A DNA stretch of 64,000 nucleotides. It comes from Eledone cirrhosa. Its lineage: Eukaryota. Position numbers and translations under genes: made by a program. Each line of letters starts with the position of its first letter. Position 1 is the stretch's first letter. The notes beneath the pieces were generated by a model, which was not told where the DNA came from, did no database searches, and saw nothing but the letters and a program-made list of their open reading frames with translations. This document shows positions 1,522-63,648 of the stretch, piece after piece. The stretch is taken from contig OZ024758.1 of the NCBI GenBank assembly GCA_964016885.1, forward strand, positions 20,584,001 through 20,648,000, written 5' to 3'.

Positions 1522-1574
<53 letters not shown>

Positions 1575-1598
1575 GTGGTTACACAACAGTTAGTTAAC

Positions 1599-1646
1599 CA
1601 TACCGAGAACAATTGTTTCACCTTCGTGGATCTTCAGCTCGGAATG
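1599..1646 (-). ncRNA. Minimal type I hammerhead ribozyme (family B, left arm)
   Basis: Minus strand: cattccgag CTGAAGA tCCacgaaGGt GAAA CAATTG TT ctcggtatg. Palindromic stem III ACAATTGT, GUU triplet. Confidence 0.7.
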
Positions 1647-2411
1647 TGTATGGTTATAGGAACAGGGAGGACAACCGTACGAACGCGCATGCGCATAAAC
1701 TCGGTTACTTCACACATGCAATACTAGACTGCGTGTGGGGGGTGTAAGGGAGATAACTGCGAAAGTCCGGAACATTTTTTGGTTGAAAATAAAATTAAAA
1801 AATTAAAAATAAAATTACAAAGATTCGGTCCGGAGCCTTGTAGTTATGCAATATATGTTTTGTGACGTGTGGACAACGTGTGAAAAATTCACTTCTCGTG
1901 TTAGAGGCAATCACTATTACGCAATAGTGATTGTCTAAACACGAGAAGAGAATTTTTCACACGTTGTCCACACGTCACCAAACATCTATTGCATAACTAC
2001 AAGGCTCCGGACTGAATCTTAAAATAAAAAAATTAAAAATAAAATTACAAAGATTCAATCCGGAGCCTTCTAGTTATGCAATAGATATTTGGTGACGTGT
2101 GGACAACCTGTGAAAAATACACTTCTCGTGTTTAGGCAATCACTATTACGCAATAGTGATTGCCTTAACACGAGAGTGAATTTTTCACACGTTGTCCACA
2201 CGTCACCAAACATTTATTGCATAACTACAAGTCTCAGGACTTAATCTTTGTAATTTTATTTTTTATTTTTTTATTTTATTTTCAACCAAAATACTTTCCT
2301 GACTTTCGCAGTTACACCCCCGCACGGAGTCTAGTATTGCCTGTGTGAAGTGACCGAGTGTCTGCGCATGCGCGTTCGTACGGTTGTCCTTCCTGTTCCT
2401 ATAACCATACA

Positions 2412-2459
2412 CATACCGAGCTGAAGATTCGCGAAGGTGAAACAATTGTTCTCGGTATG
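2412..2459 (+). ncRNA. Minimal type I hammerhead ribozyme (family B, right arm)
   Basis: Perfect 9-bp stem I CATACCGAG/CTCGGTATG, CTGAAGA 2421-2427, weak stem II, GAAA 2439-2442, ACAATTGT, GUU (cut after 2450). Confidence 0.72.
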
Positions 2460-2552
2460 GTGAACAAACTGGTGTGTAACCACTTCTACCTAACTCCTCC
2501 CTTGGACTGAGTGCTCTACCACTACGGATATTACCTTCCAGTGATCCACGAC

Positions 2553-16006: not shown

Positions 16007-16062
16007 ACTGCCTGATGAGGTCATAGCCATTCAATGGGTATCATCGAAATATATATAGCAGT
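16007..16062 (+). ncRNA. Minimal type I hammerhead ribozyme, intact core
   Basis: ACTGC CTGATGA GGTcATAgCCATtcaATGGgTATcATC GAAA TATATA TA GCAGT. Canonical G10.1-C11.1 pair, AUA triplet (cut after 16057), 45 nt upstream of (TA)n. Confidence 0.8.
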
Positions 16063-41252: not shown

Positions 41253-41318
41253 TATTTTGTCTGATGAAGGTATAGCATATTGTTAATATGATATCCCCGA
41301 AATATATATAATGAAATA
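41253..41318 (+). ncRNA. Minimal type I hammerhead ribozyme (family A), intact core
   Basis: TATTTTGT CTGATGA aGG..CATATT gtt AATATG..CCcc GAAA TATATA TA ATGAAATA, within a (TA)n-flanked element 41108-41362 with partial inverted ends. Confidence 0.72.
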
Positions 41319-62770: not shown

Positions 62771-62856
<86 letters not shown>

Positions 62857-62859
<3 letters not shown>

Positions 62860-63571
62860 ATTGAGGAAGCACTCAGTCGATGGGACGAGTTAGGTAGGAT
62901 TGGTTACATAACATTTAGTTCAGATTACCGGGAACAATTGTTCCGCCTTAGCGCATCCCCAGCTCGTAATGGACATGGTTATACGGAACAGGAAGGACAG
63001 CCGTACGAACGATCACTTCACACAGGCAATGCTAGGATGTTGTTGTAATTCAATCCGGAGCTTAGGTACCCGGGCAGATGTTCATCCACGAATCTCGCGA
63101 GCCACGTATGGTCGCTCAAGTATAGACTACCCCATTCAATGGAAAGCCATCACTAAGTCCAAGTCATAACAAGGGGAAATCCGTCGTGTGGACTATGTAT
63201 TGATGAACGAATAAATATTCTGAAGAGATTATGCAATAGCGTTTGACTAAACACGAAAAATGAATTATTCACACGTTGTCCACACGTCTCGAAATACCTC
63301 TTACGTAACTATAAATCTCCAGAATAAATGACAACATCCTGATTTTCTTATCAAATAGAAACTTATCGGATTTTCGCAGTTACACCTCTCGCACCTCCCT
63401 TACATTTCTCGCACGTATTTTAGTATTGCCTGTGTGAAGTGATCGTTTATGCGCATGCGCGTTCGTACGGTTGCCCTTCCAGTTCCGTATAACCATGTCC
63501 ATTAGGAGCTTAGGATATGTTAAGGTGCAACAATTGTTCTCGGTATGGTGAACTAACTGTTGTGTAACCAC

Positions 63572-63574
<3 letters not shown>
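62857..63574. mobile_element. Diverged second copy of family B fold-back
   Basis: Both arms align to 1571-1730 / 2290-2520; hammerhead cores decayed; flanked by (TA)n. Confidence 0.8.

Positions 63575-63648
<74 letters not shown>

Follow-up and report, generated by a model that had tools for sequence, protein, structure and literature searches.

Penelope-like elements (PLEs) of the Hydra clade, as characterised in the relevant parts of Craig et al. (2021, PMC8557442), are under 3 kb long, have a single ORF with RWK-like and DKT, CxCx5C, CxxC and CxH motifs, and use (TA)n as target; the CxxC and CxH motifs lie around a conserved E and N. The supplement of that paper includes Hydra-1_Obim, an octopus family, and the hammerhead of Hydra-1_Ajap, a sea-cucumber family. 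Insertions of EN+ PLEs are described in passages of PMC8557442 and PMC3846280 as having an adjacent inverted 5'-truncated copy and a one-sided tail, and for rotifer Penelope the latter source describes a tail on one of the inverted pLTRs, together with palindromes at the junctions. In the sections on these ribozymes, Cervera and de la Pena (PMC4209133) report dual minimal hammerheads on opposite strands, 100-700 bp apart, with low, dimer-dependent activity. For PAc, the Poseidon element of Anolis, the sections of Frangieh et al. (2024, PMC11167929) on its activity in vitro report that both strands are cut and extended, that two RT start sites bound the tail, that a dimer is predicted, and that the hammerhead is dispensable for insertion. 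The completion of PLE integration and the origin of the inverted, one-tailed ends are named as open questions in passages of both PMC8557442 and PMC11167929.

The window considered here is a 64,000-nt stretch of the Eledone cirrhosa genome, which is AT-rich, repeat-laden and 3.0 Gb in size. The element under study occupies positions 1570-2552 and is flanked on both sides by (TA)n, namely a (TA)n-rich target tract at 1274-1571 on the left and a (TA)n tract at 2553-2576 on the right. It is almost certain that this element consists of four 5'-truncated 3' ends of a Hydra-clade PLE, set head to head in (TA)n, likely by one old insertion.

The first-pass annotation had described a cruciform with inverted outer arms, the same hammerhead on each strand, and a tandemly duplicated inner hairpin, and all three are present. 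In the self-alignment, 1570-2488 matches its own reverse complement at 822 of 932 positions (88% identity over ~920 nt), and 1790-2020 is directly repeated as 2020-2248 with 92% identity, giving a unit of 229 nt; the hammerhead motif is found at 2416-2455 (+) and 1603-1642 (-). The palindromic symmetry that had been claimed extends to the arms and not to the ends, since a 64-nt tail (2489-2552, +), lying between two termini, is present on the right arm and absent from the left. The predicted fold of the + strand, the strand that was folded, has an energy of -683 kcal/mol versus -231 ± 6 for 20 shuffles, so that the extensive pairing expected from the first reading is borne out far beyond shuffled sequence. 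The branched rod with a ribozyme is not; the predicted fold is a single long unbranched rod, in which the hammerhead is wholly paired to the opposite arm.

The four pieces are identified by comparison with the full-length copy at locus L056, which serves as the reference for all positions so named. The left arm (1570-1925, -) is an inverted, 5'-truncated PLE 3' end with 92% identity to reference 2157-2513; it contains the last ORF codons, the 3'UTR and the hammerhead, and ends at a short terminus, between CACTTC and TA, which is followed by (TA)n. The second piece (1916-2020, +) holds the final ~33 ORF codons and the stop codon (reference 2157-2261, 95% identity; tblastn 94% over 32 aa), and the third (2021-2154, -) holds the inverted ORF end and the A/T-rich beginning of the 3'UTR (reference 2157-2291, 91%). 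The right arm (2145-2552, +) is a further 5'-truncated 3' end with hammerhead and tail (reference 2157-2577, 90%), and ends at a long terminus followed by (TA)n. Because all four pieces start at the same ORF position, at a micro-hairpin in L056 (ATT-ACGC-AAT), the inner 'hairpins' are ORF ends joined head to head. Their stems, first taken as non-coding, are the end of a PLE ORF (tblastn 68-94% identity).

The parent family was recovered from the same genome. A search with the element gave 4,213 candidates, and among the 40 that were scored, most of the top matches were to a single 408-nt unit, which corresponds to the right arm. Many copies continue upstream of this unit into an ORF, the last codons of which (LRNSDCLNTRSEFFTRCPH...) open the right arm. 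With an RT fragment as query, 23,419 candidates were obtained in the genome, and in 20 regions around RT matches with long open frames a single ORF was found to comprise the RT and a C-terminal endonuclease region. The full-length copy L056 is a 2,577-nt unit (2.58 kb) between two direct repeats, and the ORF of the family, starting from an ATG, has RWR at 37, DKT at 113, the RT motif YRDDG at 341 and the endonuclease motif YVGMAEG at 590. The CxCx5C linker (CSCRKPEAC), CGLC (CxxC) and CPH (CxH) are found in several copies. In 6 distinct read-through copies (8 rows), the tail runs on into the 5' region of the element.

The assignment to the Hydra clade is based on these motifs and on a by-eye protein comparison. 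The family has a single ORF with a C-terminal GIY-YIG-type endonuclease in a unit of <3 kb, and the hammerhead lies in its pLTR, as expected of the clade. Over the N-terminal 44 residues, 21 are identical, by eye, to the published Hydra-1_Obim protein. A Pfam scan of 4 proteins found no RT or GIY-YIG family; RVT_1, GIY-YIG and HTH_animal clusters are among the neighbours in the Atlas, at 0.94-0.98. A 34-nt stretch of the hammerhead has 4,711 exact matches in the genome versus 0 for its reversed control. The family is apparently an uncatalogued, high-copy member of the Hydra clade.

Two other PLE frames were seen among the regions collected. Locus L067 (7488-9893, -) holds a frame of 801 codons without interruption; it belongs to a second Hydra-like family, more distantly related, with DKT, a CNC linker and a YIG endonuclease, and no hammerhead core was found in the ~600 nt downstream of it. 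Locus L074 (7714-9249, -) holds a 511-codon frame of another PLE clade, with RT and YIG endonuclease, which is Poseidon/Neptune-like by eye.

The hammerhead motif is of the minimal type I. In the + strand motif of the window (2416-2455), the cut is predicted after position 2450 (GUU), and the - strand motif (1603-1642) has an intact core and 1 change in loop II, as judged by motif scan and column comparison. Stem I is CCGAG/CUCGG, the core is CUGAAGA...GAAA, stem III is AC-AAUU-GU and the cleavage triplet is GUU, with 2-3 bp in stem II and 2 bp in stem III. Stem III is self-complementary (AACAAUUGUU), from which a dimer is predicted, and in monomer MFE folds of short arm pieces the hammerhead fold is mostly not clean. 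In Rfam, positions 1572-2550 gave 41 matches, all under the gathering scores and none of them to a hammerhead at E ≤ 10, and the whole window gave only simple-repeat or hairpin matches among the best 150 of the 388 listed. Because no hammerhead match was obtained, the call rests on the motif, its pairing and its pattern of conservation. Across 53 arm sequences taken from RT-picked loci, the subfamilies vary at the bulge and edge of stem I, at core position N7 and in loop II, and the remaining core positions are at least 94% invariant. Selection for the hammerhead in the source elements would be expected to leave such a pattern. The role of the hammerhead is placed, as the likely reading, in the RNA of the parent element and not in the window copy, where its presence on both strands follows from the pLTR hammerhead in each of the arms.

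Further hammerhead-core-like motifs (CUGANGA...GAAAUA) with a long stem II are found in the window at 34-73, 41261-41303 and 16012-16055 (+). Those at 34 and 41261 belong to clearly related repeats and are probably the ends of another PLE family. At 340-500, the window has a tRNA-like head, and the sequence after this head is probably a common octopus SINE.

With a hammerhead intact in its core on both strands and with extreme base pairing, the element could suggest a viroid-like or retrozyme RNA that passes through circular intermediates and has a ribozyme in each polarity, as was the lead of the first-pass annotation; animal retrozymes are, moreover, reported as derived from PLE pLTRs (bioRxiv 10.64898/2026.07.22.740005, in the portion on their origin). 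This is nevertheless very improbable, and the lead is not supported. The window copy is unique genome-wide: the exact apex text has 3 occurrences in the genome, of which 2 are in the window element itself and 1 is at locus L186, where the inverted arm is only 62 nt long, and the central junction between the second and third pieces (at 2020) has 1 match in 3 Gb with up to 1 mismatch allowed. Since each strand has a single hammerhead and there is no head-to-tail tandem unit, no unit-length RNA could be excised; the duplicated unit holds no hammerhead. The + strand hammerhead is, in addition, buried in the predicted rod. The left and right arms are mismatched at ~12% of their positions, and the only changes that they share are variants already common in the family, none of them private. 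The side remark of the same annotation, which named PLE inverted-pLTR formation, was the right explanation.

The second two-armed element that had been noticed, at 62852-63576, also argues against a viroid-like RNA in having broken cores. It is an older, separate insertion of a related subfamily (82% and 77% identity to the reference; tblastn E 1e-22), with a 158-nt inverted arm bearing an eroded tail (62852-63009) and a 513-nt arm bearing a short terminus (63064-63576). Its description as a diverged relative with the same two-arm layout is correct as to its existence, at 72-81% identity, and fails in the details: there are no inner hairpins, both hammerhead cores are mutated, and about 270 nt of the 513-nt arm is endonuclease-coding sequence.

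The history of the four pieces is recorded in their substitutions. They differ from the family majority by private changes (2.9-6.7%), none of which is common to two pieces except in the apex. One minority variant, present in 9% of the other copies, is common to all four pieces, and the outer arms additionally share two commoner family variants. An ADAR-type A-to-G excess in the pieces was sought in the variant table, and none was seen. The four pieces arose from a single source at roughly the same time; each has since decayed on its own, and no sign is seen that pairing was under selection. A late duplication of the inner hairpin was considered and rejected, since neither the first and third nor the second and fourth pieces have common private changes outside the apex. 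An early tandem duplication of the 229-nt unit after insertion would look identical to template switching.

Palindromes trouble assemblers, and in four sequencing runs only family-level matches were found, with no record spanning the element. Even so, an assembly or chimeric-read artefact is hardly to be believed, because each piece has private changes of its own, whereas a chimera would produce near-identical arms, and because half of the insertions sampled are likewise two-armed.

The insertions of the family were sampled in 80 regions taken in genome order from the first 88 of the 100 matches listed, all on one contig and each with an exact match to the 34-nt stretch. These regions contain 82 anchored insertions, of which 41 are two-armed with both termini and 35 are single-armed (21 tailed, 13 short and 1 other). 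The remaining 6 comprise 3 with a long terminus and an arm that stops before the short site, and 3 with an inverted piece without an end. Most of the 82 insertions end in TA repeats and some in TC repeats. The first-pass annotation had itself held that single-armed copies with scattered inversion points would speak against a viroid-like element, and this is largely what the sample contains, with 35 of 82 insertions single-armed and inversion points that vary.

The script tally of the 41 two-armed insertions gives 39 with one short and one long terminus, 1 with two short and 1 with two long termini; 39 corresponds to p = 4e-10 against an expectation of 0.5. On re-reading, the insertion scored as short plus short (L143) is long plus short with an internal deletion, so that 40 of 41 have one short and one tailed end, the two termini being 66 nt apart, as are the outer termini of the window element. 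L127 and L128 seem to be two copies of a single duplicated segment, and when they are counted once the tally is 39/40. L159 is a single insertion with two tailed ends. L153 was rejected as a long plus long case; it consists of two insertions of different subfamilies with a TA tract between them.

The inner junctions, unlike the outer termini, are variable, with a different text at each locus. Their apparent clustering at reference 2442 was rejected as an artefact that arose because a single subfamily had served as reference; when 8 references were used, the arm ends were scattered over about 2404-2471 (leaving aside 5 long or complex loci that were mis-paired in this comparison). Within L106-L177, the ends of most short arms fall in a stretch of about 70 nt that lies at the hammerhead or just upstream of it (reference 2404-2471), a distribution biased by the choice of anchor, and several inner junctions hold templated inserts of 7-23 nt.

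Several other peculiarities were seen in individual loci. L115, L126 and L153 each have two family insertions in one TA tract, in one case of different subfamilies. A whole insertion with its flanks is apparently duplicated in L127/L128, about 930 kb apart and inverted, and in L031, as a 3.4 kb tandem. In L109, L116, L125, L145, L169 and others, a (TC)n or (GA)n run lies between several of the ends and the TA repeat.

The fixed outer ends, the TA flanks and a copy number in the thousands would also fit a MITE-like foldback DNA element that has terminal inverted repeats and propagates itself. This reading is extremely improbable, because the interior is ORF sequence, the ends are asymmetric, the inner junctions vary by locus while the central junction of the window copy is unique, and single-armed and full-length retroelement copies exist.

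The two arms of one insertion tend to share their subfamily. At subfamily-diagnostic sites, paired arms agree at 349 of 364 positions (96%) in 45 pairs, against a mean of 57% and a maximum of 72% in 1000 shuffles; these are 45 of 46 pairs, 36 from the census sample and 9 from score-picked loci. Over 5,707 nt, the paired arms also have 8 rare variants in common, which is above every shuffle. Activity of one subfamily at the same time, or conversion between arms, could add to this agreement. Taken together, the one-of-each ends and the shared subfamily letters point to coupled priming of both target strands.

In the proposed course of events, the GIY-YIG endonuclease of the element would cut both strands of a TA repeat, and the RT would prime cDNA from both free 3' ends, at the short site on one and at the tailed site on the other, with the same RNA or a sister RNA as template for both. 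In the tandem sequence of the element itself, TA comes directly after each of the two termini, and in the RNA each start site would thus offer 2-3 nt of microhomology to the target. Both cDNAs would then stop early and be joined 5' to 5'. In the window copy, the RT likely folded back at the 3-bp micro-hairpin in the ORF end, and two further template switches would have given the doubled inner hairpin. A target-site duplication is unreadable within (TA)n. In the strict form of this scheme, one RT-endonuclease dimer would make the short start on one cut strand and the tailed start on the other, from a single RNA; we consider this possible, though somewhat short of evenly balanced. In the relevant experiments on the anole PLE in vitro, start-site choice did not differ between the strands (PMC11167929), an observation that stands against the strict one-of-each coupling.

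The same one-of-each ends and shared subfamily letters are accounted for if only the tailed-end cDNA is primed and then folds back to serve as its own template, with resolution at the short site by the endonuclease. Both apices of the window element fall on a natural micro-hairpin, which one further locus (L186) uses as well, and many junctions have 1-10 nt of overlap or lie in short palindromes; self-priming has been proposed from junction palindromes in passages of PMC3846280. As the sole route it is rather doubtful, because self-copying cannot yield a short-ended arm that extends further 5' than the tailed arm. Such arms, further 5' by >10 nt, were identified by hand in 5 of 39 loci (L135, L137, L140, L144 and L158), and likewise in L058 and in the second element of the window (62852-63576); in L158 the arms have no overlap at all. 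A mix of twin priming and self-copying routes is likely. If strict twin priming is true, the thousands of two-armed stumps in this genome would directly record how PLE transposition passes through its second-end step, which is as yet unresolved.

The window element is ordinary retrotransposon debris and a real PLE insertion product. The inverted stumps, one-sided tail and opposite-strand hammerheads of PLEs are already published. In a literature search that covered sources outside subscription, no paper was found that counts short versus tailed ends per insertion, and the rule of one short and one tailed end is a modest addition that can be tested. The high-copy family offers both a countable rule (a short and a tailed end from one source in each insertion) and near-intact ORFs for testing it. 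For animal DNA in general, where 'ribozymes on both strands' are encountered, PLE ends should be checked first.

Among known systems, metazoan non-LTR retrozymes resemble the window element in having a minimal type-I hammerhead and PLE-derived sequence, but the element differs from retrozymes and hammerhead viroids in lacking head-to-tail units, a second hammerhead on the same strand and a fixed unit. To our knowledge, the ribozymes of the two polarities in viroids are not mirror copies arising from DNA inversion. PAc, as far as the sections of PMC11167929 on it go, is like the window family in its two RT start sites bounding the tail and its AT-rich target; it belongs to a different clade, and its hammerhead overlaps the ORF start, whereas that of the window family lies entirely within the UTR and, in a tandem copy, precedes the ATG by about 290 nt. 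Within the Hydra clade, judging from the corresponding entries in PMC8557442, the 3' hammerhead of Hydra-1_aJap shares its variant core (CUGAAGAU...UGAA, with the cut after U) with that of the window family. Hydra-1_Obim is distinct from the window family, given the partial N-terminal identity noted above (21/44, by eye) and a different hammerhead, and the window family, with a stem II of only 2-3 bp, is far more abundant than a remark on Hydra-1_Obim in that paper suggests. There is also a correspondence with the EN+ PLE insertions, which, in the descriptions drawn on here, have the same head-to-head arms, tail at one end, junction palindromes and opposite-strand hammerheads spaced by a few hundred bases. 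The tails described there are 30-40 nt long, and that of the window family, at 64-66 nt, is about twice this length; compared with those inverted insertions, the window copy has two extra inner pieces.
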